From Oligoflexales bacterium (GTDB lineage: Bacteria; Bdellovibrionota_B; Oligoflexia; Oligoflexales; Bog-1112), in contig JBGCDR010000028.1 of NCBI GenBank assembly GCA_045105515.1, forward strand, positions 1-62,140: a stretch of 62,140 nucleotides of DNA, written 5' to 3'. The position numbers and the translations under genes were made by a program. The notes under the pieces are model-generated. The model was not told the origin of the DNA. It made no database searches and was given only the letters and a program-made list of their open reading frames with translations. Numbering within the stretch: the first letter of the stretch is position 1; every line of letters begins with the position of its first letter. Shown here piece by piece: positions 2,297-54,402 of the stretch.

Positions 2297-4450
2297 ATGT
2301 CAAATTTCAGCTTTGTAATCAAGTCTGAATCAGATAAACCTTACACCGGCGGCTACCACAGCTTTAAAAAGATTCTACGTTTAGAGGAAGACGGATCTAA
2401 GATTATAAGTTGCGAGCATACCGGCTGGCAGCATTTCAAGTCTGACTACATTTCTTCAGCTTGGCTCAACCCTGATGGGACTAGAGTTCCCTACTGCATT
2501 CCTTTAGACATCGATGTTAAAGATACTGACAAAAAGTGGCTTGATGATGAAGGGCGAATTAACTGGGAGAAGGCTGTAGCCTTCCTCCAAAAAAACTACC
2601 TTGAGATCTTTAGCTATCTTCTCTTTGTAGTTCGTAGCACGGCCGGCAAGGGAATTCACCTGGGAATTGCTATCAGTCCTATTGTTAAAGACGGTAGCGA
2701 AGGATCTATCAAAACGGCATTCCTAGCTCAGCAAGCCCAAGAAGCTTTAATCAGATTACTAAGGCATCACGGGCTAGGCGCGGATAACGCAGCTAGGGGC
2801 CTTGTCAGAGAGGTGCCTAATTTCAGACGGCATGAAGTCTCAAAATATAGTCAGGCGAAGCAGCTTAGTTACAACAAAGATATCCACGCACTCATAAAAA
2901 GAGAAGGCCGGAATGTTATCACAGAGATCCTGGCGATCACCAATAAGCTAAAAGAGTGCAGACCAAAAGCCAAAAAAGACCAAGAAGAGATCCTTCACCC
3001 ACATAAGACCACAGAAGCTAGGTTGGCTCACTTGTATGTGGATCTTTTTGACAATCTTGGGCAATCCAAATGCTACACGATGGCTGAGCTAATTAAGCTG
3101 ACTCAGATATCGAGGGCAACCCTTAGAAATATACTCGTAAGCCGCCCAAAGTCGCGGCCTAAATGGCTCAACGTGAACTATCTAAATAAGAGCGAAGGCT
3201 ATGAGCTTTGGATTAACCCTGAGTTTGGCGATATCGAGCGAGCAGTCAAGCTCATAGAGAACCCTGAGTATGCATCAACTTTTCTTAAAGACTTAAAGCT
3301 GCCAGAAGAAGTGGAAGATGGCGAGCGCAATGCATGGTTATCTAGTGCAGCAATTTACTACAAATGGCATGGGTATTCCAAACACCAAACCCTAATAGCA
3401 TTGAACCATCACACTAAACAGATACCTGGGTATGAAGATTCAAGGAACTGCAAGAGCCTGACACGGATTGTTGGTTCGGTGTACAGGAACCAGCCACAGA
3501 TGCTTGGAATCAAGTCAGGAAAAGAATTACCGCTAGCTTTAAGAAAAAAAACGGAAGTAAAAAATAACATAGAAGGCCCGTATTCTACGGGTCCTTTTGC
3601 CGCTGGAAATACCCACTACTCCCTGGCCTTCACGCGCAGGGGTAATGAGAAACATTTAGTCAACTTGGGCGAGAATCAAGAACAATCAGATACTTCAATT
3701 GTAGAAGGTGTAGAAGTGAGAGGCACTGGATACAAATTACAGCTTCGAGCAATACAGGAGCTTTTGGGGAAACTTGATGAGAAACCAAGCAAGTTGATCG
3801 TCAAGGGTCAGTCGATGCTTCAGGCTAATCCTGTGGTGGACAAGTTTGCCAAGTACTATGGCTTTGAGTTTGAGTTTGCTGAGCGTGATGCTGATGATAA
3901 GCGGCTTTTGAAAGAATTCAGGGAGAGCAATTTGGAAGCTCTCCCATCAATGGATGGAGTTGAGGTCAGGACATCAATAGATATACCGGATTTATACGAG
4001 CGCAAGGTCAGATTGGATGGGTATCTTGAGCATCAAAGGTGTTTTTATTGGCTAGGTGATTCTTGGATCGGCCGCAAACTTCAGGTCGTGGACGATGGCA
4101 CAAACATAGAATTTTTTGAAAAGGCGCAATTTATTAGAGGGTACAATCGCCTTTCTGGAAAAGGCGCAAAGACTGAAGGTGGCACAAACTCCCAGTGGCA
4201 CAAAGCTAAATCTTTAGATTCCACCTACAGACGAAAGGCGCAAAAGGTTGGTCCTTCTTTTGACCAGTTAATCTTGGCACAAATTGAGAAGGGCCAAGGG
4301 ATTATCAATACAAAATTTATATTTGGGTTCTTGAAGCTTATGGACTCATGGCCTTGGGAACAACTCGAAGCTGTCGCAAAGTATTGTGCTAGAAGGCGCA
4401 ATTATTCATACAGATTTTTCAACTCATGTTTGGAGGCTGGAGTCGAATGA
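2297..4450 (+). CDS. Putative replication protein: AEP-like primase-polymerase plus PriCT-like domain plus IS21 IstA-like C-terminal region
   Basis: PLDIDVKD and RSTAGKGIH AEP-like motifs; EDGERNAWL PriCT-like motif; FAKYYGF, RKVRLDGY...FY and LEAVAKYC...SYRFFNSCL resemble the IstA C-terminus; divergent from parAB. Confidence 0.65.
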   Translation: MSNFSFVIKSESDKPYTGGYHSFKKILRLEEDGSKIISCEHTGWQHFKSDYISSAWLNPDGTRVPYCIPLDIDVKDTDKKWLDDEGRINWEKAVAFLQKNYLEIFSYLLFVVRSTAGKGIHLGIAISPIVKDGSEGSIKTAFLAQQAQEALIRLLRHHGLGADNAARGLVREVPNFRRHEVSKYSQAKQLSYNKDIHALIKREGRNVITEILAITNKLKECRPKAKKDQEEILHPHKTTEARLAHLYVDLFDNLGQSKCYTMAELIKLTQISRATLRNILVSRPKSRPKWLNVNYLNKSEGYELWINPEFGDIERAVKLIENPEYASTFLKDLKLPEEVEDGERNAWLSSAAIYYKWHGYSKHQTLIALNHHTKQIPGYEDSRNCKSLTRIVGSVYRNQPQMLGIKSGKELPLALRKKTEVKNNIEGPYSTGPFAAGNTHYSLAFTRRGNEKHLVNLGENQEQSDTSIVEGVEVRGTGYKLQLRAIQELLGKLDEKPSKLIVKGQSMLQANPVVDKFAKYYGFEFEFAERDADDKRLLKEFRESNLEALPSMDGVEVRTSIDIPDLYERKVRLDGYLEHQRCFYWLGDSWIGRKLQVVDDGTNIEFFEKAQFIRGYNRLSGKGAKTEGGTNSQWHKAKSLDSTYRRKAQKVGPSFDQLILAQIEKGQGIINTKFIFGFLKLMDSWPWEQLEAVAKYCARRRNYSYRFFNSCLEAGVE

Positions 4451-6564: not shown

Positions 6565-6587
6565 TTTGGCATAACTTCTTTGCCAAA
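6565..6587. promoter_or_regulatory. Palindromic operator TTTGG-N13-CCAAA upstream of the SBP gene
   Basis: TTTGGCATAACTTCTTTGCCAAA followed by a TACTAT -10-like hexamer; same geometry as the site at 9083-9109. Confidence 0.5.
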
Positions 6588-6626
6588 GTACTATTGGAAT
6601 AGTCTGTTGCTGGAGAAGGACCGACG

Positions 6627-8096
6627 ATGAGAAATTTAGCCTTATTAATGTTTATATTTGCGAATACGGCGTTTTCAATCGATCAACGAATTATCTCTCA
6701 CCTTGAGAAGAACACACCAACACTTATTATAGAGTCTTTCGATGGATTTGATCTTGACCCACTTTATTCAGAATATGGAAAAAATGTATATATTAGCGGT
6801 TTGGTGTCTGAGCCTCCTCTTAGGCTGGAGCTTAATGGAGATCTTAGCTCTAGGATTTTGAACTATTTTCACAAATTTAAAAATAAGGTTGTTTTTACTG
6901 TTTCTAAAGACGCTAAGTTCAATGACGGATCAATTATTACTGCTGCAGATGTGGCTATGACCATTAAGAGGTACGCACGTACTGTACCAACTCATGCAAC
7001 TCTATCTGCCTTGGAAGGATTTGATAAATGGTTAGAAAACGAGCATCCCTTACTACATGAATTCCAGGGAATAAAAATTGAAAGTGATAATTTAATTCTA
7101 ACATTTGTGCATGAAAATGTTTCTCCGTTTATGTGGGCAGCAGACCACCCAGTTGGAGTAGTTCCTGAGAAACAAATAGATAAACTAACAGGAGAAATTA
7201 TAGGAGGCACACCTCTTTCTTCTGGAGGATTTTGGATTAAAGATGCCTCTTACCCAATTGTTCAGTTAACTGGAAAGTCAGATATATCTATTGTGGGTAT
7301 CAATCCAAATGAGTGGCATCAATACGCAAAGTATTTCTCTAGTAATCATGTTGCAACTACTGATTCAGGGTATTTTACTCATGATAATTATAAAAAACTG
7401 GTTGATTACAGCAACATCGTTGAAGAGTTTACCCACCCTAATAATCGATTCCAATTTATCTATCTAGTAGATTCAAAGCCTCCATTTGATAACCAAAGAG
7501 TTCGGCAGTTTTTTGCATCTGAAATTCGCAGAACAATTGAACTTGAGGGAGATATGCCTCAAGGGTCAATCATTACGAAAATTACTGCTGGATATGAGCC
7601 TCTGAGTGAATTGAATCGAAGTTTTCCCCCCTTCTCAGAGAGTGAGAAAAAAGAGATCTTAGCCTACTTAAAGCAACATGAAATAACACCGACTTTTAAG
7701 GCAAAGGATAATTTTATTGCGATATTGAATAAAACCGCTGAAAGGCTCGATTTGAAGATAGGAAACAAAAATAATGAAACTTTCAATGTATCTTGTTTTT
7801 ATTCAGGTGTTGATGCGGCTGTTCCTGTAAAAAATTACGTGGATCTTTTGACCCCAATGCTCAAACCTATTGGATTCAAGGTTGCTTTGAATGACCCTAG
7901 GTTGCAAGAACTTGTTTCAAAAATATCTGTTCATAACCCTTCAGCAAGGTCTATAAGAGATATGAATCGGTATTTGTTCGAAAAATCTGTGATTACGGGT
8001 ATTAAACATAATCATATAGTTCATTATGTCTCAAAAGATACTAATATTATAAAGCGAAAGCATTGGATATTCAGCGCGGAAGACTACTTTTTCTAG
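6627..8096 (+). CDS. Orphan ABC substrate-binding protein, family 5 (OppA/DppA-like)
   Basis: Signal peptide; AKFNDGSIITAADVAMTIKR family-5 signature; PPFDNQRVRQ; no permease or ATPase nearby. Confidence 0.8.
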   Translation: MRNLALLMFIFANTAFSIDQRIISHLEKNTPTLIIESFDGFDLDPLYSEYGKNVYISGLVSEPPLRLELNGDLSSRILNYFHKFKNKVVFTVSKDAKFNDGSIITAADVAMTIKRYARTVPTHATLSALEGFDKWLENEHPLLHEFQGIKIESDNLILTFVHENVSPFMWAADHPVGVVPEKQIDKLTGEIIGGTPLSSGGFWIKDASYPIVQLTGKSDISIVGINPNEWHQYAKYFSSNHVATTDSGYFTHDNYKKLVDYSNIVEEFTHPNNRFQFIYLVDSKPPFDNQRVRQFFASEIRRTIELEGDMPQGSIITKITAGYEPLSELNRSFPPFSESEKKEILAYLKQHEITPTFKAKDNFIAILNKTAERLDLKIGNKNNETFNVSCFYSGVDAAVPVKNYVDLLTPMLKPIGFKVALNDPRLQELVSKISVHNPSARSIRDMNRYLFEKSVITGIKHNHIVHYVSKDTNIIKRKHWIFSAEDYFF

Positions 8097-8257
8097 CCGT
8101 TCCCACCCCCACATCCGTGATCTTCAGAACACTTAGCGGTGCGTTGGATTTCAACCTCACTAGGGTGATACCCTCCATCAGTTCCAGACAATGCTGATAC
8201 TGACCATCCTGCTAATAACAGTATTGCCAATAGTTTGGTTTTCAATTCTCTAAACAT
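8093..8257 (-). CDS. Small secreted peptide precursor (54 aa) with a C-terminal Cys loop and GGGNG tail
   Basis: RBS GAAGGGG before ATG 8257, 2 nt after the regulator stop; Sec-type signal MFRELKTKLLAILLLAGWSVSALS; predicted mature GTDGGYHPSEVEIQRTAKCSEDHGCGGGNG. Confidence 0.75.
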   Translation of the reverse strand: MFRELKTKLLAILLLAGWSVSALSGTDGGYHPSEVEIQRTAKCSEDHGCGGGNG

Positions 8258-8259
8258 GA

Positions 8260-9051
8260 CTACCCCTTCGATAATTTGTCGAACCAGCAATTTAAAAATA
8301 CTGGTATATTGCCTTCTTCTTCTTCCTCTTCAAGTATTTCTGTCGCTTTTGCTAAGAAGTCATTTAAGAGGTTGTTCAACCTTTTCATTCCCTTTGCAGT
8401 TGTTACATAGGAAAGGTAGTGAAGGATTGAATCGTCTCCGTTGCTAAAGAATCTTTTTTCTAACTCTGGCAGGTGGAGGTTTATGACAGACAGCGGAAAT
8501 TTTGCATATCCTCCTCCTGAGATCACTAGCTTATCGTTTACTACTCCAACATACCCCTGGTTTTCCAATTCTGTTACTTTTTCTATGGCATTTTTTCCAA
8601 TAATATCGAAGATATCATCAACATCTGTTTTGCCATTAGACGCTAAAAATAGTATTAAGAAGTTTTCAAAATCAAATAGAAGGCTAGTGGGCACAGTTAC
8701 CATACGCTGTTTGCCATATGGAGCCTTGTAGCTTCTTGGTTTATTTATTTCTAGGTAACTTTTAATTTCCGCACTGGAGTTATCAATAATATCGTTCATC
8801 GATGCAAATCCGCCAAAAAAACTTTGCAATGCTAGAACATCATCCGTGTTAATAAAATCTACCTGATCTTTTTCGTTCCAATTTGCAAGTTGAGAAATCC
8901 TTGTTCGACTAACTTGCAGCTTATCTGAAAGCCTTCTCCAACTTCTCTCCGATTTACCTCTGCTAATCTCAGTCTGCCCACGATATTCGACAAGCTTATA
9001 TTTCAACTCTTTTGCAACATCGTGTGGGATCTGGGGTTTTTTTCTAGGCAT
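8260..9051 (-). CDS. HTH transcriptional regulator (XRE-like N-terminus; overall resemblance to TIGR02147/DUF4423-type regulators)
   Basis: SWRRLSDKLQVSRTRISQLAN HTH; second wHTH-like segment; C-terminal helix-strand domain. Confidence 0.65.
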   Translation of the reverse strand: MPRKKPQIPHDVAKELKYKLVEYRGQTEISRGKSERSWRRLSDKLQVSRTRISQLANWNEKDQVDFINTDDVLALQSFFGGFASMNDIIDNSSAEIKSYLEINKPRSYKAPYGKQRMVTVPTSLLFDFENFLILFLASNGKTDVDDIFDIIGKNAIEKVTELENQGYVGVVNDKLVISGGGYAKFPLSVINLHLPELEKRFFSNGDDSILHYLSYVTTAKGMKRLNNLLNDFLAKATEILEEEEEEGNIPVFLNCWFDKLSKG

Positions 9052-9082
9052 AAACTTATTCTCAAAAAATCAATAAAACCAA

Positions 9083-9109
9083 ATTTTGGTCTTATTAAGG
9101 AACCAAAAT
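9083..9109. promoter_or_regulatory. Palindromic operator ATTTTGGT-N11-ACCAAAAT upstream of the HTH-peptide operon
   Basis: Perfect 8-bp arms about 30 bp upstream of the regulator ATG. Confidence 0.55.
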
Positions 9110-9133
9110 ACAAAAAAAAATTAGGTTTGCAAC

Positions 9134-10546
9134 TTATCTTTTGTTGATTAAAATTTCATCAATTATATTCCGCCAATCGTTATCATCCTGTTTTAAAAGG
9201 AATAATTTGAAACCTTTTCTCTTTTGGGGAGCAAAACTAGATTGGCTTATTAGGATGCACGGACCAAAAAATCCATATGATTTTGCGCTTTCTACGAAAT
9301 TACTCTCAACAGCATCCCAGTTTTCGGCTTCCGGATCTTCGTGTTCTTCTCCATATCGGTCTACAATGACGCAATCAAACCAATCTCCTTTTTCAACTGC
9401 ATCAAAAAAATCGTCGATATGAGAGAAGGTTATAGTCTTAAAACCATGGGATTTAACGCTTCTGTCAATACTTTCTCTAATCGACTTAATATCATCAATA
9501 ATTGCAATGATTGGTGTTTTTAGATATTCAGAAGTAATATTGTTGTAAATTCTCTCAATACTTTTTCTTGGGATCTTGATTTCAACAATAGTTTCTTTTT
9601 CGCTAAAAGTATTTTTAATACTGCCATTTATCAGATCTAGCGCTGCATAAGTAATCTTCAAACCTCTGCGAGCATTTGAGTTAGGATTATTCATTTTTTT
9701 CTGATCAATAAGAGCTAGTTTTTTTCTGACTCTGTTTTTTGTGGTAATTATAATAAATTTATCATTGCTACGAGTCGCTATTTCAACTCTTCCATTAATG
9801 GTAAACCTCTTTGCATTCCTTAAAACATTGCAGAGCGCTAAGGATAGCGGTTGGTCATTTACACATATGTTTGCATCGTGAAATTTGTAATCAACAATTC
9901 GATTTGAGCAGTAAGATTTGGCAAGCATTTCAATAAGCACAGATAATTTTGGCGTATATTCATTCTTGTCTCCACATTTAAGCAGTAGCGCTACAGATTC
10001 GGCTGTACGCTTTTTAAAAGCTTTAATTTTGTCGTTTACAGATAGAAGGTACCCAGTTTCATGTGAGCTCCAATCTAAGTAAAATGCTGCTTCTTTTTTC
10101 GAAAAAAATGCAATAATTCTCGCTATAGCAGCTATTATCCCGGTAAACGCCAATAAGTTGCGGATGAAATAGAGCCAAAAAAACTCATTAAAAAATTTAA
10201 GAATAATGACAATTCCATGCTCTTTATAGTTAAGAACAAGATATTTTGTAAATATAAAATGTTGTTCAGTCCACTCAGTACTAGGTCTGATAGTTACCTG
10301 TTTTTTTAGGCCATTATCGCCAGATATGTTGTAATATTTACTATCAAATTTCCCTATAATTTCAAATTCAGTAAGCTGGCTAAAGGACCGCTGTAGAGAT
10401 TCAAGGTCTAGTCCAATCTGATTGTATTTTCCTTCTTTTAAAGACGTCATTGCCATTGGGATAAACGCGCTCTTAAAAACTCCGACATAATTTCCCAATT
10501 CCCATGTCACGAGCCATCCTGATAAAAAGAAGAATATGAAGAACAA
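9134..10546 (-). CDS. Hybrid sensor histidine kinase/response regulator (degenerate HATPase); start codon uncertain
   Basis: Two TM segments flanking a periplasmic domain; H-box-like SSHE; N-box CNVLRNAKRF; C-terminal receiver IAIIDD...CVIVD. Confidence 0.75.
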   Translation of the reverse strand: MFFIFFFLSGWLVTWELGNYVGVFKSAFIPMAMTSLKEGKYNQIGLDLESLQRSFSQLTEFEIIGKFDSKYYNISGDNGLKKQVTIRPSTEWTEQHFIFTKYLVLNYKEHGIVIILKFFNEFFWLYFIRNLLAFTGIIAAIARIIAFFSKKEAAFYLDWSSHETGYLLSVNDKIKAFKKRTAESVALLLKCGDKNEYTPKLSVLIEMLAKSYCSNRIVDYKFHDANICVNDQPLSLALCNVLRNAKRFTINGRVEIATRSNDKFIIITTKNRVRKKLALIDQKKMNNPNSNARRGLKITYAALDLINGSIKNTFSEKETIVEIKIPRKSIERIYNNITSEYLKTPIIAIIDDIKSIRESIDRSVKSHGFKTITFSHIDDFFDAVEKGDWFDCVIVDRYGEEHEDPEAENWDAVESNFVESAKSYGFFGPCILISQSSFAPQKRKGFKLFLLKQDDNDWRNIIDEILINKR

Positions 10547-10554
10547 GGATATAA

Positions 10555-11124
10555 TTATATGTTTTTTGCTGTTTTTATTGCAGAGAGAACGAATTTTGAC
10601 TGCTCCTCATTGAGACTGGCGAGCTCAGGTAAAAGGTTGATCCACTTTTTATTTTGCTCAATTCTATCAACATCTTCATAAATAACTTGTCGCAGTTTAC
10701 GGCGGTCGGAATGATTTAATTCAGCATGAAAATTAAGAATATTCAGGTCGGATCTACTTATGCGGTTTTGATATCCTTTTTCATCAAAAATCCTTGCAAC
10801 CACATCAGATGGCTGCATACGCCTGATATCCGCAGTTAATAGGATGTCTTCCAAGGTGAAATTAGTCCTATTAAATATGCGCTTAAAATTGCTTTCGAAC
10901 CGTTTCCCGTATTTGCGGACAAAATTAATAATAACAGCGTGGGTAGTGGGGCACTTAGTATTTGTTTTTAATGCTAGAGCGGTTTCTTCATCATCTTGTA
11001 TCAACAGGTGCTCAAGTCGGTTTCGAGGACTTTCATCCTTTTCTGATATATCTGATTTTAAAGTGTTTTCATTTGGTTGCGATTGGATAAATTTTGCTAG
11101 ATTCATCATTGCTTTGCGTGTCAA
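10555..11124 (-). CDS. Hypothetical protein; possible degenerate XRE-type repressor
   Basis: GAGGAG RBS before TTG; NFTLEDILLTADIRRMQPSDVV resembles the C-terminal half of an XRE HTH; cI-like position divergent from the early operon. Confidence 0.45.
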   Translation of the reverse strand: MTRKAMMNLAKFIQSQPNENTLKSDISEKDESPRNRLEHLLIQDDEETALALKTNTKCPTTHAVIINFVRKYGKRFESNFKRIFNRTNFTLEDILLTADIRRMQPSDVVARIFDEKGYQNRISRSDLNILNFHAELNHSDRRKLRQVIYEDVDRIEQNKKWINLLPELASLNEEQSKFVLSAIKTAKNI

Positions 11125-11552
11125 TCTTTATCTCCTCGTAATTTTTCAAAAATAGAACAAATTTAGTTGATAAAAATAAAAAAACACTTTTAAATATATT
11201 ATTAATGACAATTTTTACCATAAACCACACCTTTTAATAAAAATAAGCTCTACAATCGTATACCCAATTAAATGGTAGTGAAACTACAAATATACTCCCT
11301 TTTGGTAAATGACTTCGGTAAAATGGTCGTCTAATAAATAAAGTAACCAAAAAAAATATTTTTTGTGTCTATTGGTTTCATGGGATCACCATAAATCGTT
11401 ACATCCCTAATAATTAAAGATAAATCTCGTCAAATCTGGAAAACTTTGCTTTGAGTTTCCCAAACTAGGAAACATTTTTCAATTTTTATGTGTTTCAATG
11501 GTTGAGTAGACACGGTTGGCTGGCGTTGTGCCTAAACTAAGGAGATTTAAAA

Positions 11553-11987
11553 ATGGAAGCTCTCAATATACTAAATGTAAACACACCCTTCTTACTAGCG
11601 CATGTTCAAAAAGATCTGAATATACCTGAACAGCCCAATCAAGAATCAAATGATGAAGAGAAAAAGGAGCAGCTAGAACTTAAGGAAGCACAAGAAGCCG
11701 ATAAAAAGAAGGCTAAAAAATCCTCTTATTGCCCTTTAAAAGAAGCTAAACGCCGGGAGCAGGAAGAAAGACGTAAAGCAAAATTGCACCAAGCATTTTT
11801 GGAAGCTCCAGAGAGAGAACGGCTTACTATCGAAATCATTCATCATAAACGCCGACTAAGCTCAAAGATTTTTTCTGGTTTGGAAAGGGCAAAAGAGAAG
11901 ATTTTAGCAAGAGAGATAAATGTTTTTACTTCGCCTTTATCAGAGCTTCAAAGCTTCTGCCAAGCACTAACTAGTTTTGGAGCATAA
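11553..11987 (+). CDS. Hypothetical protein, first gene of the early operon
   Basis: Strong AAGGAG RBS; charged helical protein. Confidence 0.7.
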   Translation: MEALNILNVNTPFLLAHVQKDLNIPEQPNQESNDEEKKEQLELKEAQEADKKKAKKSSYCPLKEAKRREQEERRKAKLHQAFLEAPERERLTIEIIHHKRRLSSKIFSGLERAKEKILAREINVFTSPLSELQSFCQALTSFGA

Positions 11988-11988
11988 G

Positions 11989-12342
11989 ATGCTGCACTAT
12001 GAATCGAGAAGCTTTTCTAACGATGAGGAAATGATTGAATATTGCAGAAAAATGAAAATGCAAAGTTATCAAGATGCCTCAAAAATCGTTGTAGAGCTTA
12101 AAAATTTGAAGCAGCACCGGATGCTGAAACTACGAAAAGAGCTGATTAGGCTAGATCGTATTCTCTCAAAGCAAAAAAAAGCGGAAGACTGTCGGCCTTT
12201 CATGGATGAGATGAAGTCTATTGGAGTTGAGATTCATGATAAGGGTGGCATGTCTTTACTACGAACGATTTGGCACTCCATTCCTGGGTTTAACTCAGTG
12301 GTGGAGTGCGCTTGGCACGGGGTAGGTTCTTGGGTTTATTAA
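11989..12342 (+). CDS. Hypothetical protein (shares a domain with 50030-50467)
   Basis: GGAG RBS; IG..I..KGGM.L and W..VG.W motifs. Confidence 0.7.
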   Translation: MLHYESRSFSNDEEMIEYCRKMKMQSYQDASKIVVELKNLKQHRMLKLRKELIRLDRILSKQKKAEDCRPFMDEMKSIGVEIHDKGGMSLLRTIWHSIPGFNSVVECAWHGVGSWVY

Positions 12343-12508
12343 AACTAACGACCTATTGGGGTCTGAATTTTTGATAAAAAAGCGTCTAAAACCTAAAACA
12401 TATCCATAATTATTAGAGGAATACGGAGTTTAGGCTGGATGCGCGAATTTAGAGTGAAATGTTTCGACTAACATGTTGTTTGATGCGGATTTTTGTCGAG
12501 TGAAAGCT

Positions 12509-15500
12509 ATGAATGTAGAGCAGACTATAAGAGAAAATTTTAGCGAAATTGAAGCGGTAGCCTCCGAGGTTGGGATTGATTTCTCCAAGGCCCAATACTT
12601 AGTGGATGGAAGGGATAAGTGGAAAAATAAGAATATACCCTTTCTAGATAAAAAAGATAAAGGTCGACTCTCACTTAATAGTAATATTCTAGGTAATAGC
12701 CTCATAATCACCTTTTGCAACAAGCGTGGTCATATGTCTGCGAGTTGGAGCTCAGGCAAAGATCAGGTCATTAGACTGATGCCTAAGCGTCGAATCAGAA
12801 CCGCAAGTCCCAAAAAAAAATGGTACAAAAAAGAGACTTTTGAGGTCTTCAATAAAAAGTACGATGAATGTGATGAGTGGACCGACTCAAGTCATTATAT
12901 GGTCAAAAAAGGCTTAGTGGGTCGAGTTAAATTCAAACGTATGAAAGACTGGGCTGGCGAATTTATCGCTGTGCCTATGTACAACGTATACGGTGAAATA
13001 AAGTCCTTTCAAAAAATATATGACAATGGTCGCAAGCGCTTTATATCGGCTCCTAAGACCGGATTATTCTATCCTACAAGTGAACTGTCACAAGAAACCG
13101 AGGTAATTGTCGTTGGGGAGGGCGTTGCTACCGTATTCGATGCTGCTGAAGCTTGGGATAAAAAAGCTGTAGGTGTTGCTGCCTTTGACTGCCAGAGTAT
13201 CCATTCGGTTGTAAAGAGACTTCGTGGGGCGTACCCAGATGCCAGGATCGTAATCGCTGCTGATAATGATATCGGCAAAAAAAGTGGTAATGCTGGGATG
13301 CTTGCAGCGCTTGAAGCCTCTTATCTTCTCAAAGTAAGTGTCAGATACCCCATAGCACTAAACGAAGGTGATCCAGTCACCGACTTTAATGACGTTAAAT
13401 CTACCTATGGCAAGGAAGAGCTTGAGAGGCAAATGAAAAAGAACGTGCTTAGGATCTCAAGAAGCGCTTTTGATTTTAATTTGCGAGCTCTTGCCTTCTC
13501 TGGTGAAGAAAAGTCCCCTAACTTCAAAAAACGCATGAGAAAAATCGTCGGGATCGCTATCCGTAATGGAATGGGAATCGATGAGATGATCGAAGCTATT
13601 GGAGTTGAAGACCCTGATGTTATAGACACCTACTATTCAATCATGAAAGGCCATGAAAAAAGAGTCGGGCGCTTCCATCAGGTCACTAAGGGCAAGTATG
13701 AGTATGCAAACTATGAGTCAATTGACCTAAAAAGAGAGGACCACGGCGGCTATACAATTACAGATGAAGCTGCTGAGCAGATAGCCCGAACTAAGGGAAT
13801 CGTGATCCTCGGAACCCCAATGGGTTCAAGCAAAACAGAAAAAGTAATCAAAAGGATATTTAACCTTTTCACCTTCGCTGCTTATTTATGCCACAGAGTA
13901 GGTTTAGCTGAGGAAGCTTCACATCGGCTTGAGATTAATTGCTACCGGAAGTTAGATGAAATGCAAATGGTGCTTGTGAAAAAAGTTGCCAGTTGTGTTA
14001 ACTCAATCAATAATGTCCTTTTTGGAGAAGGCAGTTACTTTCAAGGCTTAGAGTGTGTTGCAATTGATGAGATATCTAAGGTTCTTGACCATATTTGCGG
14101 TAAGACGGTCGAGGACCAAGAAGGTATTCTAGCTACTGTTAAGAAGATGCTAGCATCAACACCTCAAATACTTCTAGCTGATGCTGATGCGAGTGACCAT
14201 CTAATTGAGCAGATTCACGAGCTTGCTCCAGATCGTAAGATAACGGTTTTCAACCCTACTGAAGCACCTATGGACCATGTGCAAGTTAAACTTTGCTCTA
14301 ACAAAGATGCAGGCATGGAATATGTTGAGCGATTGGCACTTGAAAAAAAGAAAGTGCTAGTTGCTATGGACAGTAAGATTCAGTCTGAGAACCTTGCTAG
14401 AATATGCAAGAAAAAAGGACTTAAGGTTCTTTGCGTCACATCTGAAACCAAATCTTTCTGTAGCAAGGTTGGTTCATGGGTGATTAATCCAAGTCAAGAA
14501 AGCAAAAAATACGACGTAGTAATCTATACATCCGCTGTAGATTCAGGGGTTTCCGTTGTCTCAGATCATTTTGATGAAACAGTTGGAATCTTTAGAGGGG
14601 TTATCACCCCTGATTCCATAATTCAAATGATGGGCCGCAACAGAAAGGCTAAGCAGTGGTTTCTTGTTTGTGAGCCTTTTCGTCACACCGTTTTTGGAAA
14701 CAGTAGGACTGAGAAAGCAGATGCAGCAAAGCTTTCGTCTATAAAAACCTCTCTTGAAGCGGGAAATAAACCCGTTTCAGTGCCTAGCCTTACCGATTTA
14801 GATAAACTAATGATCTCAAGTGAGCATAGAAATCAAAAGCTAAAGCAAGATTATTTTGTGTCGCTCCAGGTTATGCTTGAGCAAAAAGGCTACAACGTCA
14901 ATCGAGTTGAACGACCCAAAGACATGCTTAAAAAAATAAAAGAGTCCCTAAAAGATGCCAACAGCGATAGGGTGCAGGAAAGCGTTGAGACTATCCTTGC
15001 TACAGAGGCTCCAGAGGAATCCGATTATATAAGGCTAAAGTCTCAATATACCATCACTGAAGAACAAGCCTGGAAAATCAAACGGTTCGAGGTCGAAAAT
15101 AGCCTTGGTAAAACAGATCTTTCCTCGGATGATGTTCTTTTCTCACTAGACAACGGTGGAAGAAGGGAGCTCATATTTGAGCTGCTTCATACTGACCAAA
15201 AAGATCTACTTGAGTACGATAAGTATGAACAGAAAAAGTTTGTCAGTGCAAAAAAGAGAAGGCACCTTTTTATAAAGGGAGAAATCCTTAAGAATCTATT
15301 TGAGGCACTTGACCTCGATATGGAAACGGGCGAAGGGACTTTTACCCATCATAAAGCACGCAAATTTATTGAGTACATCCAGTCTAATGACAAGCGGCGT
15401 GTCGTATGGAATGAACTAAACCTTGGACCTTACCTTGGAAAAAATTCAGAGCCATACTGTGCAACAACCTTTGTTAAGGCTATCTTCAAAAAGATGGGGC

Positions 15501-15847
15501 TCAAAACTGAATCACAAAAACGAACCAGAAAGAAACATTCATATCAGTCTATAATTCCCGAGTCATGGGAAACTATGATGGATTATAAAGCTTCACGATC
15601 CTTATCAGGAAAAAACGTAGCTAAGATTCCTAAGTCTGAGCTTGATAAATTAGACAGGGAACCCAAAGCGTCTGCAACACCTGAAAATGAGGAGAATTCA
15701 CTCATAAAAAATGGTGGAAATTATGGCGTTGATATTTGTATTTTGTGCAATGCCCATGTGGGCAATAAGGCTCAAATCTTAACTAATGGTAAATGTTCGG
15801 AATGCGTTAAGATGTTTAAACGACTTGGCCATAAACGCTCAGGTTGA
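12509..15847 (+). CDS. Primase-helicase replication protein (TOPRIM plus SF2 origin-binding-type helicase, C-terminal Cys4)
   Basis: VVGEGVAT, IAADND, TDFND TOPRIM motifs; PMGSSKT, VAIDE, VDSGVS, QMMGRNR helicase motifs; CILC...CSEC. Confidence 0.88.
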   Translation: MNVEQTIRENFSEIEAVASEVGIDFSKAQYLVDGRDKWKNKNIPFLDKKDKGRLSLNSNILGNSLIITFCNKRGHMSASWSSGKDQVIRLMPKRRIRTASPKKKWYKKETFEVFNKKYDECDEWTDSSHYMVKKGLVGRVKFKRMKDWAGEFIAVPMYNVYGEIKSFQKIYDNGRKRFISAPKTGLFYPTSELSQETEVIVVGEGVATVFDAAEAWDKKAVGVAAFDCQSIHSVVKRLRGAYPDARIVIAADNDIGKKSGNAGMLAALEASYLLKVSVRYPIALNEGDPVTDFNDVKSTYGKEELERQMKKNVLRISRSAFDFNLRALAFSGEEKSPNFKKRMRKIVGIAIRNGMGIDEMIEAIGVEDPDVIDTYYSIMKGHEKRVGRFHQVTKGKYEYANYESIDLKREDHGGYTITDEAAEQIARTKGIVILGTPMGSSKTEKVIKRIFNLFTFAAYLCHRVGLAEEASHRLEINCYRKLDEMQMVLVKKVASCVNSINNVLFGEGSYFQGLECVAIDEISKVLDHICGKTVEDQEGILATVKKMLASTPQILLADADASDHLIEQIHELAPDRKITVFNPTEAPMDHVQVKLCSNKDAGMEYVERLALEKKKVLVAMDSKIQSENLARICKKKGLKVLCVTSETKSFCSKVGSWVINPSQESKKYDVVIYTSAVDSGVSVVSDHFDETVGIFRGVITPDSIIQMMGRNRKAKQWFLVCEPFRHTVFGNSRTEKADAAKLSSIKTSLEAGNKPVSVPSLTDLDKLMISSEHRNQKLKQDYFVSLQVMLEQKGYNVNRVERPKDMLKKIKESLKDANSDRVQESVETILATEAPEESDYIRLKSQYTITEEQAWKIKRFEVENSLGKTDLSSDDVLFSLDNGGRRELIFELLHTDQKDLLEYDKYEQKKFVSAKKRRHLFIKGEILKNLFEALDLDMETGEGTFTHHKARKFIEYIQSNDKRRVVWNELNLGPYLGKNSEPYCATTFVKAIFKKMGLKTESQKRTRKKHSYQSIIPESWETMMDYKASRSLSGKNVAKIPKSELDKLDREPKASATPENEENSLIKNGGNYGVDICILCNAHVGNKAQILTNGKCSECVKMFKRLGHKRSG

Positions 15848-23656: not shown

Positions 23657-24007
23657 TTACATCTGCAGATGTTTCCTAGCCACCTTTACCAGCTCATCTA
23701 TTCCAAAAGGTTTTAGTAGTACATCGGAAAATAGCTCTGTATCAACTTTGTCTGCAAACCCAGTTATCAAGATCACCGGAAGCATCTCATCTTTTTCATG
23801 GATGGCCTTTGAAAGTTCTGCGCCATTCCATTTTGGCATAACGTAATCAGTGATGACAAGGTCTGGCTTGAATTTTTTATACATATTCCATGCAGACTTA
23901 CCATCGGATGCTTCTAAAACCTCTACATCAGAAAATTCGCTCTTTAAAGTTGAACCAATTGCATCTAAGAAGAAACATTCATCATCAACTAAAAGGACTT
24001 TCGACAT
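23657..24007 (-). CDS. Stand-alone response regulator (receiver domain)
   Basis: VLLVDD, PDLVITDYVMP, ITG, KPF. Confidence 0.92.
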   Translation of the reverse strand: MSKVLLVDDECFFLDAIGSTLKSEFSDVEVLEASDGKSAWNMYKKFKPDLVITDYVMPKWNGAELSKAIHEKDEMLPVILITGFADKVDTELFSDVLLKPFGIDELVKVARKHLQM

Positions 24008-47255: not shown

Positions 47256-47522
47256 TTAAATTTTGAACTTCAGTTTCTTTAACCCTTTTTTTACATGAAT
47301 TTCTAGAACCTCTTTCCGGCTTCCGAGGGTTGTCACAGGTACTTGCAAGCTTCTCGCTGCCTCTGAGCTATTTCCTTCGCTTTCTTTGATGGCATGTGCT
47401 ATTAATGAAGCTTCAAACATGTGAACTATTTCTTTCATACCATGACTCTTAGCAATGGCTAACGCTTCTTCATCTACGAAATTAAGAATCTTTTCAAATG
47501 ATTTGTTTTTACTAATTTTCAT
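47256..47522 (-). CDS. Fis-like HTH protein, copy 1
   Basis: FEASLIAHAIKESEGNSSEAARSLQVPVTTL. Confidence 0.8.
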   Translation of the reverse strand: MKISKNKSFEKILNFVDEEALAIAKSHGMKEIVHMFEASLIAHAIKESEGNSSEAARSLQVPVTTLGSRKEVLEIHVKKGLKKLKFKI

Positions 47523-47668
47523 TGACTGACTCTTTTTAGTGATTGATTTACATAAAACTAAAAATCGCATAGTACCCAAAATATTCATGATTGCAATACG
47601 ATACTCATTGAAAAATAACCTATACAATGCAAAAATATGGTTGTTAAGACAATTTACAGGGGATCACT

Positions 47669-49999
47669 ATGATAAAATTAACTTTTCTTGGCGGTGCAGG
47701 GGCAATCGGGGCGTCTTCTACTCTTTTACAAGTGGATGACACGTCGATTGTCGTGGACTGTGGAGTTAGGTTTACGAAACTAAACCCACTTCCAGATTTA
47801 GACTCACTCTCAAATTGTAACCTTGATGCAATTCTAGTAACTCATGCTCACTCGGATCATACAGGTGGCCTACCTGTCTTGAGTGAAGCATACCCTCAAG
47901 CACCTGTTTATATGACTCCTCCAACCATGGATTTAGTTAGAGTACTGCAAAAAGACGCTCTAAAAATCATGAACTTGGAGGAACGAGAGCAGGATGTACC
48001 TCTATATAGTGAGAAGCAGGTAACCAAGTTACTTGAGAATATTAGACCAACACACATGTATGACAAGGTTGAGATAGGCCCAGTTACAGCAACCTTCTAC
48101 CCAGCTTCGCATATCATTGGTGCATCTATGATCCACATAGATACTCCCTATGGTCACTTATTGTTTTCCGGTGATTACTCAGTGACCGCTCAAAAAACTG
48201 TTCCTGGTCTGGATATTCCAAAGATTCCAGTGGACCTGTTCATAACCGAATCGACCTATGGCGACAGACTACACTCAGACAGAAAGACAGCAGAAGCTAA
48301 ATTGGTCTCTACGGTGCAGTCCACCATAGAAGAAGGTGGAAAGATTCTGATTCCAGCTTTTGCGATTGGAAGGGCTCAGGAGGTTATCACTATCTTAAAG
48401 CAAGCTATTGCTAATAAGAAGTTGCAAGCTGTGAATATTTACGTTGATGGAATGGTACGCCCTGTTTGCAATATCTATGGAGATCATCCAAGGTATGTAA
48501 CCTCCTATATTGAAAGACAATCCCGTAAAGGGCACGCTTTCTATAGCAAGCATATCAAGCCAGTTTTTCCAAAAGACAGAAAGCTAATCTGTGGGGGTGA
48601 TCCATGTGTTATCATCTCTTCTTCTGGCATGTTGTCCGGTGGCCCTTCTGCTTTCTATGCTGAAAAGCTAGCAGATGATGAAAGAAATAATATCGTTATC
48701 ACAGGCTACCAAGATGAAGAGTCACCAGGACGAGCTTTGCTTAATTTACTTAGTGATAAAAGTGCAGATCGAACTATTAAGGTAAACGGAAAGCTCCTAC
48801 CTATCAAATGTAAGGTAAGTTCCTATAGTCTCTCAGCTCATGCAGATAGAATGCAAATGGTCGGGCTTATAGACAAACTCTCACCTAAAACAGTAGTACT
48901 TGTTCACGGGGATGAGAAAGCAAAACAAACCTTTGCAGATAGCCTACAAGGACTGGATATAGTCAGTGCTACTGAGGGTATGACTATCGAGAGGAAATAC
49001 CCACGACGAAAGATTGCATTAAAGCCTAAGTTAAATAGGACAGTCTTGATAAATCTTTCTGAGTCTGGAAAGGGCTCTTATAGCCTAGATCAGCTAATAG
49101 ATTTAGCGGTTAGTGGGGATGTTGACCCTAGTCATCGAGATGGTTTGAAAAAAGAGATTATTGCTACAAGTCTGTTTTACTTTGGTGAATCTAGCGATAT
49201 CTTGCACTCTGCAGCTAAACTTAAGGAAGACAGTCCAGAAGTCACGGAAGTAGATCAAGAAATACTCAAAGAGAACCCCAAGGGTAGACTGCTTGAATTA
49301 TGCATGAAAGCAAAGGTTCCAGCTCCCCAATGCAACCGGATTGACAAGGGAAGAGATCATCACGTTACAGTCACCTTAACAATTGATGATAAGCAAGAGA
49401 CTTCCGAAACCTTCGTATCAACTAAGCTCATGCTTGCGACACAAAGAGCTTACAAAGATATTCTTGAGAAGTTTAAAGACGAGCTTATGAAAAAGATAGA
49501 GGGTCTAAAGGTCGCTCCAGCGGGTTCTTTTCAGTCTCCATTGGCCGAATTGCATGAGCTATGCCAACGTAGCAATATTAAAATGCCAGTCGTGAAAGTG
49601 CTTCCCTCTACTCCAGATAGATTTTCTCTTGAGGTCTCCCTTTTTATTGGTTCTCACAAGATTGGGTCACATATTGCTCATGGATCATCTAAGAAAGAGG
49701 CTAAATTAGAAGCCTACAAGCATTTGTTAGCCGAGTACGGCGACACACTAAGAAAGAAAATCGTGTCTGGCAATGCCAATCTGTTCAAGGATTACAAAAG
49801 CGAGCTTTTCATGCTATGCAGTCAGAGGAGGGTTTCGCCGCCGCAGTTCTTTGTCAAAACTGCTGAGAATGGATTTGAGGTATCAGGCCAGCTTAATCTT
49901 GGAGGTGAGCAAATCACTACCGAAGGCTTCCCTTGCTCCACACATAAGCAGGGCCAACAGCTCGTTTCTGAGGATATACTATCGCAAATCCATACATGA
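47669..49999 (+). CDS. MBL/beta-CASP ribonuclease fused to three C-terminal dsRNA-binding motifs
   Basis: VDCG, HAHSDH, SGD, ESTYG, SAHAD, VHG; three dsRBM-like repeats (NPKGRLLELC, SPLAELHELCQ...SKKEAK, DYKSELFMLCS). Confidence 0.88.
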   Translation: MIKLTFLGGAGAIGASSTLLQVDDTSIVVDCGVRFTKLNPLPDLDSLSNCNLDAILVTHAHSDHTGGLPVLSEAYPQAPVYMTPPTMDLVRVLQKDALKIMNLEEREQDVPLYSEKQVTKLLENIRPTHMYDKVEIGPVTATFYPASHIIGASMIHIDTPYGHLLFSGDYSVTAQKTVPGLDIPKIPVDLFITESTYGDRLHSDRKTAEAKLVSTVQSTIEEGGKILIPAFAIGRAQEVITILKQAIANKKLQAVNIYVDGMVRPVCNIYGDHPRYVTSYIERQSRKGHAFYSKHIKPVFPKDRKLICGGDPCVIISSSGMLSGGPSAFYAEKLADDERNNIVITGYQDEESPGRALLNLLSDKSADRTIKVNGKLLPIKCKVSSYSLSAHADRMQMVGLIDKLSPKTVVLVHGDEKAKQTFADSLQGLDIVSATEGMTIERKYPRRKIALKPKLNRTVLINLSESGKGSYSLDQLIDLAVSGDVDPSHRDGLKKEIIATSLFYFGESSDILHSAAKLKEDSPEVTEVDQEILKENPKGRLLELCMKAKVPAPQCNRIDKGRDHHVTVTLTIDDKQETSETFVSTKLMLATQRAYKDILEKFKDELMKKIEGLKVAPAGSFQSPLAELHELCQRSNIKMPVVKVLPSTPDRFSLEVSLFIGSHKIGSHIAHGSSKKEAKLEAYKHLLAEYGDTLRKKIVSGNANLFKDYKSELFMLCSQRRVSPPQFFVKTAENGFEVSGQLNLGGEQITTEGFPCSTHKQGQQLVSEDILSQIHT

Positions 50000-53364: not shown

Positions 53365-54402
53365 CTAACTTAAATCGTTAATACATTCACTTATTTTATT
53401 AAATCCATTAGAGTATTCTCGTGTAGGTTCACCAAGAATTGGGATAAGATTGGATTTAGCAGCACCAACACCATCTATTTTTTTTCCATCTGAAAAGTCA
53501 ACCAAGTACCATTCCTTGATTCGTGATTTTATTTCCTGTAACAAGTCATTTGCATCTTTATCTTTCCCACCGTATCCACATACAATCAGTTTAATCTTTT
53601 CTGAATCTTTACTAAGACAGCTGAGTCTATCTTTATGAATTTTTGGCATTAAGAATTCATATTTAGATGGTAGAGGCAACACCATAGCAGGTATTAACAA
53701 TTCGGAAACCTTGTTATGACTTTTTATTTCCCCTCCAAAATTTCCTTCTATCACCCTGATATAATCATCAAGATTACTGTCCCAATCTGTATGAGAGATT
53801 AGTTGAATCACTTTTGAAAAAGGCAAATTAGGACTTGGGCCATTCAAATATTTACGCCCCCAATTTACGCAACCATGAAGCTTGAAATAGTTAATTTTAT
53901 TATTGATATTCAGGTAATTATCAACATTATCTAGCTGCTGGCTGGTGATATTTTCAATCGCTTTATCAAGAAAGGTATCATAGTTTAGGTTTAATAGGAC
54001 AATTGAATCAGTATTAGGCTTCTGAATTAGCTTTTGGAGGAAAAATGTATATGCAGAGACTGGATTTGAATCCTTCTGAAAATAAAGTTTACCTATACGA
54101 CGGAAAAGTCCATGAAGATACAATAATAGAGACAGCCTTTGAACTCTGATTTCGTGAATTTTGCTCGACCATTTCTCTTCCATGAAACTCTCTAGGTTAA
54201 AGCCAGGTTCTTTTGAATCAAACCTAGCTTCTGATACCAAACCAGAGCACATAGGAAAATTGTTTTGCACCTGAGAGAATCGAGTATCAAATATTTCATG
54301 GACCAAGGGAGGCTTCCATATTTTATGATTCCCATTGAGAGTAGACACACCTGGTATGTAGCAATCCATTGATGCCCCCGCTCCAAACAAAATCCAATAC
54401 AT
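53365..54402 (-). CDS. SIR2-like domain protein, probable defence NADase
   Basis: ILFGAGAS, LNLNYD, FKLHG, CGYG. Confidence 0.82.
   Translation of the reverse strand: MYWILFGAGASMDCYIPGVSTLNGNHKIWKPPLVHEIFDTRFSQVQNNFPMCSGLVSEARFDSKEPGFNLESFMEEKWSSKIHEIRVQRLSLLLYLHGLFRRIGKLYFQKDSNPVSAYTFFLQKLIQKPNTDSIVLLNLNYDTFLDKAIENITSQQLDNVDNYLNINNKINYFKLHGCVNWGRKYLNGPSPNLPFSKVIQLISHTDWDSNLDDYIRVIEGNFGGEIKSHNKVSELLIPAMVLPLPSKYEFLMPKIHKDRLSCLSKDSEKIKLIVCGYGGKDKDANDLLQEIKSRIKEWYLVDFSDGKKIDGVGAAKSNLIPILGEPTREYSNGFNKISECINDLS

Follow-up and report, generated by a model that had tools for sequence, protein, structure and literature searches.

A candidate peptide-sensing gene block on a phage-plasmid of an Oligoflexales bacterium

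Described peptide- and ligand-sensing systems

To our knowledge, phages that communicate by means of peptides of their own making are phages of Bacillota only, in which the peptides are received by cytoplasmic proteins with tetratricopeptide repeats (TPRs). Phages of diderm hosts listen to host small molecules, as is the case of VP882, in which a cytoplasmic transcription factor senses such a molecule. Here we describe a block of five genes from the Oligoflexales bacterium assembly GCA_045105515.1 (hereafter G000), found on a contig that was analysed as a whole (G000:C28, 62,140 bp, referred to as the window) and that carries a phage-plasmid. The genes encode an OppA-like periplasmic solute-binding protein (SBP), a putatively exported 54-aa pre-peptide, a 263-aa regulator, a hybrid histidine kinase of the membrane and a 189-aa protein, which could form a composite signalling island.

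The block probably works most like the hybrid kinases that depend on a binding protein, namely LuxP–LuxQ, TorT–TorS and CBP–ChiS of Vibrio. In these systems as in the block, a transporter-less periplasmic SBP is encoded with a membrane hybrid kinase, a likeness of layout; CBP is moreover, like the SBP of the block, a binding protein of family 5 (cluster C). The block departs from the three systems in that its likely ligand would be an exported peptide encoded at the same locus, in that it is carried by a phage-plasmid, and in that its kinase has a degenerate ATP lid.

The signature of RRNPP systems, as given in PMC10075063, is a propeptide of 10–100 aa encoded beside its receptor, Sec export, and a receptor of 250–500 aa with TPRs; TraA and PrgX are listed there among the receptors. 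The block resembles arbitrium (AimR–AimP–AimX) and the other RRNPP(A) systems, as described in PMC10075063 and PMC9765709, in that a regulator of about 260 aa is followed by a small propeptide with a signal-like, putatively Sec-type N-terminus. The logic may also be shared, the level of a self-made peptide informing the element. On the contrary, the block has no TPR receptor, resides in a diderm host, includes an SBP and a membrane kinase, and its peptide ends with a Gly-rich motif that is common to chromosomal cassettes of the host. No TPR was found in the 263-aa regulator by Pfam, in its AlphaFold2 (AF2) model or among its fold matches, so that the regulator–peptide pair is not a member of the RRNPP family as defined in PMC10075063. 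The original prediction, which had been made from the sequence of this stretch, was right to call the architecture unlike that of AimP and AimR.

The RepA protein of the element has its nearest characterised relative in VP882, whose sensory genes (vqmA-Phi and qtip) also lie in the neighbourhood of telN and repA. The order of the VP882 genes is Q/cII (−), cI (+), repA (+), vqmA-Phi (−), qtip, telN, parA, and the VP882 record annotates gp56 as a LuxR-family regulator. The decision and sensory genes of VP882 thus flank repA, between the partition and telomere genes and the early genes, which provides a positional analogy for the block. Unlike in VP882, the genes found here encode a peptide with a signal-like N-terminus, together with an SBP and a kinase, and a protelomerase was not detected among the proteins of the window, either by family scans or by tblastn against phages.

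The pheromone modules of the Enterococcus plasmids pCF10 and pAD1 (PrgZ/TraC, PrgX/TraA and PrgQ) also consist of an orphan OppA-like SBP, an HTH (helix-turn-helix) regulator and a small peptide encoded on a mobile element. There, the SBP feeds the Opp permease of the host and the receptor is cytoplasmic. They differ from the block in that they belong to Gram-positive bacteria and in that the clade of our SBP is linked to kinases. A literature search, made mostly at the level of abstracts, turned up nothing like this block in diderm phages or in Bdellovibrionota, which agrees with the earlier statement that the architecture was not recognised as a described one.

The five-gene block and its element

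The contig carries partition genes (parB, 124–1011, and parA, 1024–1899), a gene encoding a RepA primase-helicase (12473–15847, + strand; phrog_4913, E 2.9e-111) and phage structural genes, those of the small and large terminase, portal, protease, decoration, major head, sheath, tape measure and baseplate proteins. It is thus the genome of a tailed phage of the myovirus type with plasmid functions. Recombination genes (ExoVIII/RecT and RusA) are also present. In tblastn searches against phages, RepA is nearest that of VP882 (28.6% identity, 1e-85), followed by those of phiHAP-1, PY54, phiKO2 and N15. RepA, partition genes and a structural module occur together in phage-plasmids of the N15/VP882 type, and this gene content supports the identification of the element as a phage-plasmid, which had been proposed before these searches.

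The block occupies the interval between the partition genes and the gene of a 717-aa protein (2297–4450), on one side, and repA, on the other. The SBP gene (6627–8096, + strand) converges on four genes of the − strand, which encode, in the order of their reading, the 189-aa protein (10555–11124), the kinase (9134–10546), the regulator (8260–9051) and the pre-peptide (8093–8257). These four genes look like a single operon, since they are separated by just 8, 82 and 2 nt. The stop codons of the SBP and peptide genes overlap in the sequence CTAG (8093–8096). At the other end of the block, the 189-aa gene diverges from an early operon (11553–15847, + strand) made of a 144-aa open reading frame (ORF), a 121-aa ORF and repA. 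The AT-rich region between them (11125–11552) is presumed, from its position, to be the control region; a search for operators in it returned merely short repeats at chance level, and promoter-like sites are fewer there than in shuffled sequence. The 144-aa and 121-aa ORFs gave no match in scans of family libraries. The layout of the original prediction, with its five ORFs, its overlapping stop codons and its divergence from the replication operon, is borne out by these coordinates.

Another contig of this assembly (C329) carries a further copy of all five genes, with about 84% protein identity. This second copy is flanked by homologues of two genes of the window, those of the 717-aa protein, whose C-terminus has its homologue on C329, and of a 344-aa protein. 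Across the genes of the block, the synonymous divergence (dS) between the two copies is 0.7–1.3, and the ratio of nonsynonymous to synonymous divergence (dN/dS) is 0.115 for the SBP, 0.134 for the peptide (17.5 synonymous and 11.5 nonsynonymous differences, Sd and Nd), 0.067 for the regulator, 0.147 for the kinase and 0.050 for the 189-aa protein. All five genes, including that of the peptide, are real and under purifying selection. The conservation of a diverged second copy under such selection shows that the block is more than a chance pattern of reading frames.

Two cassettes of the host lineage

Judged from the gene neighbourhoods of its homologues, the block unites two cassettes from the lineage of the host: one consists of the regulator and the peptide, the other of the SBP, the hybrid kinase and the small XRE-like protein.

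The 263-aa regulator belongs to an uncharacterised family of Bdellovibrionota. It is a cytoplasmic protein, in which no hydrophobic segment was found, with an N-terminal XRE-type HTH, a central winged helix and a helical C-terminus. It has no Pfam or NCBIfam match of its own; N-terminal matches to HTH_3/HTH_31 were obtained for about 24 of the 114 family representatives that were scanned. In the AF2 model (predicted local distance difference test, pLDDT, 74.5), the HTH helices at the N-terminus and long helices at the C-terminus are seen, and the winged helix (residues ~120–200) is MarR/ArsR-like, with 4g6q_B as the best fold match (Z 9.1); a profile search against the PDB was empty below E 0.1, and so was Foldseek at E ≤ 1e-3. 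Searched with the family profile, 1.84 billion representatives gave 790 relatives at E ≤ 1e-3, of which 399 also pass E ≤ 1e-10. The neighbours of the regulator in an atlas of protein feature space are overwhelmingly from Bdellovibrionota. Relatives are found in 10 of the 16 genomes of the bacterial family and, with a profile built on 15 sequences, in 53 of the 131 genomes of the class, with up to 17 copies per genome.

In most of these loci, the regulator gene is followed by a gene encoding a small exported protein. This is an ORF of 49–84 aa with a signal-type N-terminus and a Gly-rich end in 9 of 16 loci of the host family, and a signal-type protein of 67–151 aa, starting −4 to +31 nt from the stop codon of the regulator, in 18 of 20 distant loci. 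The pairing amounts to about 27 loci out of 36, counts that are not independent because many of the loci are orthologous. Our signal heuristic recognises 22 of 35 ORFs that follow regulators of the family, versus 11 of 202 other long ORFs of the same loci. This supports the expectation that homologues of the HTH regulator would precede a mini-protein with a signal peptide.

The chromosome of the host itself contains one such cassette (C120), whose peptide ends in ..SCEDHGGGGSN, near the ..CSEDHGCGGGNG of the phage peptide, and whose regulator is 29% identical to that of the phage. This cassette and its orthologue in a congener (G010:C57) adjoin uvrA and a glutamate symporter gene. The G010:C57 locus (L024, 419–2273) contains the closest non-phage relative of the regulator (33% identity), with an in-frame TAG. 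In L024, the regulator gene is followed by that of a soluble protein of 369 aa with HATPase_c and receiver domains, which converges on a second cassette of a regulator and a Gly-tail peptide.

The regulator is not a member of the DUF4423 (TIGR02147) family, a candidate that we rejected: neither the protein of the window, nor 10 of its relatives, nor the 114 representatives match PF14394, a search of the genome with PF14394 returned 12 other loci and not the regulator, and the hhalign probability is 2.5%. The DUF4423 proteins of Bdellovibrionota nevertheless resemble the regulator in length, in architecture and in having an exported protein or lipoprotein encoded downstream, and they are among its neighbours in the atlas (0.92–0.93). 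In the genome studied here, 4 of the 8 DUF4423 genes examined are directly followed by genes of lipoprotein type, of about 145–160 aa (on C341, C330, C303 and C266; L069, L070, L071 and L073), so that the operon logic of a regulator followed by an exported protein extends to this family. DUF4423 is functionally uncharacterised, and we found a single mention of it in the literature.

The ATG codon of the 54-aa pre-peptide lies 2 nt past the TAG codon of the regulator gene and is preceded by a Shine–Dalgarno sequence (GAAGGGG); a longer frame, starting with TTG, extends to 8290. The basic N-terminus and the hydrophobic stretch that follows are signal-like according to the heuristic, with no lipobox, the middle part is acidic, and the C-terminal tail is rich in glycine (..EDHGCGGGNG, ending in ..AKCSEDHGCGGGNG) and includes Cys, His, Asp and Glu residues. 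Between the window and C329, the signal part and the last ten residues are identical and the middle differs. The prediction of a secreted peptide therefore stands in part: the peptide is conserved and signal-like, and the CSEDHGC loop that had been highlighted is not conserved. We rejected a disulfide loop as a conserved feature because the first cysteine is lost in C329; one tail cysteine is common to the two phage copies. The last eight residues (HGCGGGNG) have a mass of about 657 Da (hand calculation), and one may speculate that a tail trimmed to this size would in principle fit through porins.

When all six frames of the 6.29-Mb assembly were scanned for ORFs of 35–120 aa combining a signal with a Gly-rich tail, just 10 ORFs came out, that of the 54-aa pre-peptide among them; 4 of the 10 belong to the modules described here, 4 are pilin-like and 2 look spurious. 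The pilin-like ones (..AAGWNLKEQRF..MWIK..GGG..) are small membrane proteins encoded on C64, C131, C350 and C439; they look like conjugative pilin-type proteins, unrelated to the module.

Regarding the second cassette, the SBP (489 aa) has a signal-like N-terminal segment and matches Pfam SBP_bac_5 (PF00496) over residues 88–163 only, with 34 bits for a cut-off of 32.4 (E 2.3e-8). The solved structures nearest the profile of its clade are OppA (9.8e-14) and MppA (1.4e-9), and AapF and OppA3 are also matched. The SBP had been described as an orphan, and indeed, the ORFs of the window of at least 100 aa that were scanned include neither an ABC permease nor an ABC ATPase, and homologous loci show kinases rather than permeases.

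The membrane kinase (470 aa, probably two-pass) consists of a short periplasmic loop (about residues 25–122), an H-box, an HATPase-like domain and a receiver domain. Its own Pfam and NCBIfam matches are weak, below the cut-offs in the case of Pfam; its paralogues clearly match HATPase_c (1e-9 to 1e-12) and Response_reg. A strong hydrophobic segment spans residues 123–150, and the first membrane pass is deduced from the alignment only. The residues that are invariant in the alignment are H162 in the H-box, N240 and N244 in the N-box, and D351/D352, D396, S434 and K452 in the receiver.

The 189-aa protein has no family match of its own. Its homologues precede the SBP gene in G000:C23, G000:C128 and G010:C119 (phmmer, 1e-10 to 1e-12) and show a weak similarity to small proteins encoded in G001:C36 and G003:C2, which in turn match HTH_3 (2e-6 and 6e-7). 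Its neighbours in the atlas are HTH_3 clusters (0.88–0.89, a lead only). The AF2 model is all-helical and too poor for a structure search (pLDDT 51), and a profile search against the PDB gave no match. The protein had been called repressor-like, which this weak and transitive similarity to XRE HTH proteins supports to a limited extent; it is probably an XRE-like regulator that travels with SBP–kinase modules.

The genome encodes just four relatives of the SBP, each beside a kinase of the same subfamily, and G001, G003 (where the contig is 779 kb long), G010 and G013 show the pairing too. SBP and kinase genes are syntenic in 18 of 24 loci, that is, in all 8 loci of the family and in 10 of 16 further loci, for which only 1.5-kb flanks were examined. 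This synteny supports the idea, already put forward in the original prediction, that the SBP is an accessory receptor of the kinase. The clade was found with an SBP profile in 20 of the 131 genomes of the class.

The absence of a small secreted ORF from homologous SBP–kinase loci had been named beforehand as an outcome that would count against peptide sensing. This was not borne out: 12 of 22 SBP genes of the clade are immediately preceded by an ORF of 60–118 aa whose N-terminus is of the signal or lipoprotein type, versus 8 of 88 other ORFs of these loci. It is so in G000:C128 (tail ..TTGGGGGGTGGVCSSE), G001:C36 and G003:C2; the tails ..NGSGGGSVVCVKFCPPDIRKRG and ..NGGGNTEGTCVKYCPPKSASGV are also seen on such upstream ORFs in the host family. 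The 263-aa regulator is absent from the C128, G001:C36 and G003:C2 loci, which shows that the peptide-type gene also travels with the SBP–kinase pair alone.

A conserved gene encoding a cytoplasmic protein of about 300 aa follows the SBP gene in 13 of the 16 further loci and lies between the SBP and kinase genes in 4 of the 8 loci of the family (members are encoded, for example, at L007:9954–10847, L088:2477–3433 and L090:6628–7527); it is absent from the window and from C329. Across the class, a unit of four genes can thus be seen, encoding a small exported protein or lipoprotein, a family-5 SBP, the ~300-aa protein and a hybrid kinase (L098–L115). Four of 14 members of the ~300-aa family match Pfam YcaO weakly (best 3.7e-7), and two E..E(R) motifs are invariant; the other 10 have no such match, the member of the host genome gives no PF02624 match at E ≤ 1, and the PDB profile matches to McbD and MusD have E-values of only 0.65–0.89. 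The ~300-aa protein could be a peptide-modifying enzyme, its identity as a YcaO protein being a weak lead.

The C128 locus (L007, 1609–6435 and 12495–12656) is the third locus of this genome with a Gly-tail peptide, an SBP and a kinase. It is divergent from a gene encoding a protein of 1608 aa with DUF3854 and a family-A polymerase, and it adjoins a homologue of the 344-aa membrane protein of the window, which suggests that it may be part of another mobile element with the same layout.

A candidate circuit, its rivals and its meaning

Because a mini-protein accompanies the regulator and also, in separate loci, the SBP–kinase pair, the simplest model has the peptide as the ligand or the partner of the SBP. 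The leftward operon would be transcribed from the intergenic region that it shares with the RepA operon. The peptide would be exported and its signal removed, leaving about 29–32 residues, perhaps trimmed to the Gly-rich tail. The periplasmic SBP would then bind the peptide and dock on the periplasmic loop of the kinase, thereby altering the phosphorylation state of His162 and Asp396, and the signal would reach the XRE-type regulators, which would act on the divergent early/replication promoter region. The element would in this way adjust its behaviour to the amount of its own peptide, and perhaps also to that of the very similar peptide of the host; the chromosome encodes a near-identical tail, so that the element could eavesdrop on the host. 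We infer every binding step of this scheme from gene neighbourhoods. The peptide might leave the cell as a quorum signal or act in the periplasm only.

We favour, tentatively and at a little under even chances, the reading of the block as a composite signalling island on a VP882/N15-like phage-plasmid, in which a self-made peptide is sensed via the SBP and the kinase. A role of the block in the lysis–lysogeny decision may be suspected from its position, and the family scans of the window gave no further candidate for a repressor in the vicinity of repA.

A number of observations weigh against this signalling island. The tie to lysis and lysogeny is one of gene position alone, and the element carries further sensory genes of host type (an MCP and a lone receiver, see below). 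The composite block is known in two instances only, both in one assembly: close relatives were absent from phage records searched by blastn, none was found in IMG/VR with the SBP and RepA as queries nor in a collection of genome contigs, a word-indexed search of 5.8 billion proteins returned just the two copies of this assembly, and metagenome contigs gave a single, distant SBP fragment (32% identity, L091). The link between peptide and SBP is also loose. An upstream exported ORF was not seen at 10 of the 22 SBP loci, and G007 and G009 have cassettes of a regulator and a Gly-tail peptide and no SBP or kinase of this clade, which shows that neither the peptide nor the SBP strictly requires the other. 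The peptide gene of the window is joined to that of the regulator and does not lie upstream of the SBP gene as it does elsewhere. Many of the small ORFs found across the class have lipoprotein-type signals, which fits a tethered accessory protein better than a diffusible pheromone. As for the kinase, both phage copies lack the G1 motif (NTGK) and have GLKI instead of GLGL as G2, so that the phage kinase may not autophosphorylate; neither a histidine phosphotransfer (Hpt) domain nor a DNA-binding response regulator was identified among the proteins of the window. As to the origin of the block, most homologues lie in settings other than phages. The original prediction had reserved the name of captured host module for such a case, and the paralogous family of regulators in the host class, the copy beside uvrA and the SBP–kinase pair on a 779-kb contig indeed argue that the block was captured from, or is shared with, the host lineage.

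The strongest alternative is that the block is host-type sensory cargo, a "moron" that alters the physiology or the envelope sensing of the lysogen, with the peptide as a built-in periplasmic partner in a three-component system that has no role in lysis–lysogeny or replication. The ordinary chromosomal settings of homologous cassettes (beside uvrA and the glutamate symporter gene in C120 and G010:C57, and on the 779-kb contig of G003), the regulator family of up to 17 copies per genome and the lipoprotein-type signals on many upstream small ORFs of related loci all agree with it. Accessory cargo is also common on the element, which encodes a methyl-accepting chemotaxis protein (MCP; 55865–57787, 9e-30), a stand-alone receiver-domain protein of 116 aa (23657–24007, − strand; Pfam Response_reg, 1e-20), a Fis-type HTH protein (47256–47627), a SIR2-like protein (53365–54402) and an endonuclease I, and this makes the rival serious. 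On the contrary, mere cargo would not be expected to be kept under purifying selection in the same place on two elements at a dS of about 1, nor to form an operon divergent from the early/replication region, in the very interval that holds the decision genes in VP882 and where the scans gave no other candidate for a repressor. We consider it somewhat unlikely that the block is such cargo.

Another possibility is that the system works by import, as in RRNPP or pCF10 modules: the SBP would pass the processed peptide to an Opp-type permease of the host, the 263-aa regulator would be the true receptor and the kinase a separate input. There is a precedent in enterococcal pCF10, where the plasmid-borne OppA homologue PrgZ feeds the host permease, and the structures nearest our SBP are those of OppA and MppA. 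The translationally coupled order of regulator and propeptide is kept throughout the family, even in genomes that have no SBP–kinase clade, and four of the five RRNPP features set out in PMC10075063 are present (a small propeptide, a Sec-type signal according to the heuristic, a receptor of 250–500 aa and adjacent genes). However, the regulator has neither TPRs nor another known peptide-binding domain, the SBP clade is tied to kinases and not to permeases (18 of 24 loci), and the downstream partner in distant loci is a protein or lipoprotein of 100–150 aa, whose re-import is unlikely. Import thus appears improbable.

Family-5 SBPs retrieve some metallophores, and the usual substrates of YcaO enzymes have tails in which Gly is next to Cys, Ser or Thr. 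The least probable reading, to which we give very little credence, is accordingly that the tail, with its Gly, Cys, His, Asp and Glu residues, forms the core of a natural product of ribosomal origin, or binds metal, and is sensed or retrieved by the SBP–kinase pair: the ~300-aa protein encoded beside the SBP in 13 of 16 distant and 4 of 8 family loci, with its YcaO matches in 4 of 14 members and its invariant E..E(R) motifs, points to modification, but its gene is absent from the window and C329, the YcaO link is weak, a single tail cysteine is conserved between the phage copies, and a Sec or lipoprotein signal is unusual on YcaO-type precursors.

The signalling island is therefore the reading that we retain. 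The stronger proposal, that this is the first virus of a diderm bacterium to make and sense its own peptide, with a trimmed Gly-rich tail, a readout by an SBP and a kinase, and repressors located by the replication operon, is unlikely.

Some other features of the element are worth mentioning. The 717-aa protein occupies the position that the protelomerase gene (telN) has in the relatives; it has no match in Pfam, PHROG or NCBIfam and none by tblastn in phages. Neither an inverted nor a direct terminal repeat was found at the ends of the contig, which is possibly incomplete, and no sign of a linear phage-plasmid with telomeres was found in the window. Positions 1–114, adjoining parB, hold 3.3 copies of a 35-bp unit (TTTCAAAATGAGGTGCGTGCACCCCATGAAAATTA); this is likely a partition site or an iteron array, and the contig may break inside it. 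The lone receiver could, speculatively, be the phosphorelay partner of the 470-aa kinase. The element also encodes a beta-CASP/metallo-beta-lactamase RNase fused to a dsRNA-binding motif (47669–49999). Rfam and tRNA scans of the window gave no match. Among the public sequencing runs listed as containing this sequence, none is of RNA; three DNA runs belong to a single study and may be the source sample.

The block is a testable candidate for peptide sensing by a phage-plasmid of a diderm bacterium via a periplasmic SBP and a membrane kinase. Beyond this element, two uncharacterised partnerships appear to be conserved across a class of mostly uncultured bacteria of predatory lineage: that of a regulator with an exported mini-protein, and that of an exported mini-protein with an SBP, a ~300-aa protein and a kinase. 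These partnerships offer candidates for what transporter-less SBPs and their kinases sense, and, the host being uncultured, it is useful that their parts are small and amenable to work in vitro or in E. coli. If the proposal is true, Bdellovibrionota would possess two undescribed families of peptide signalling, one made of an exported peptide, an SBP, a YcaO-like protein in some cases and a kinase, the other of a regulator and an exported mini-protein.

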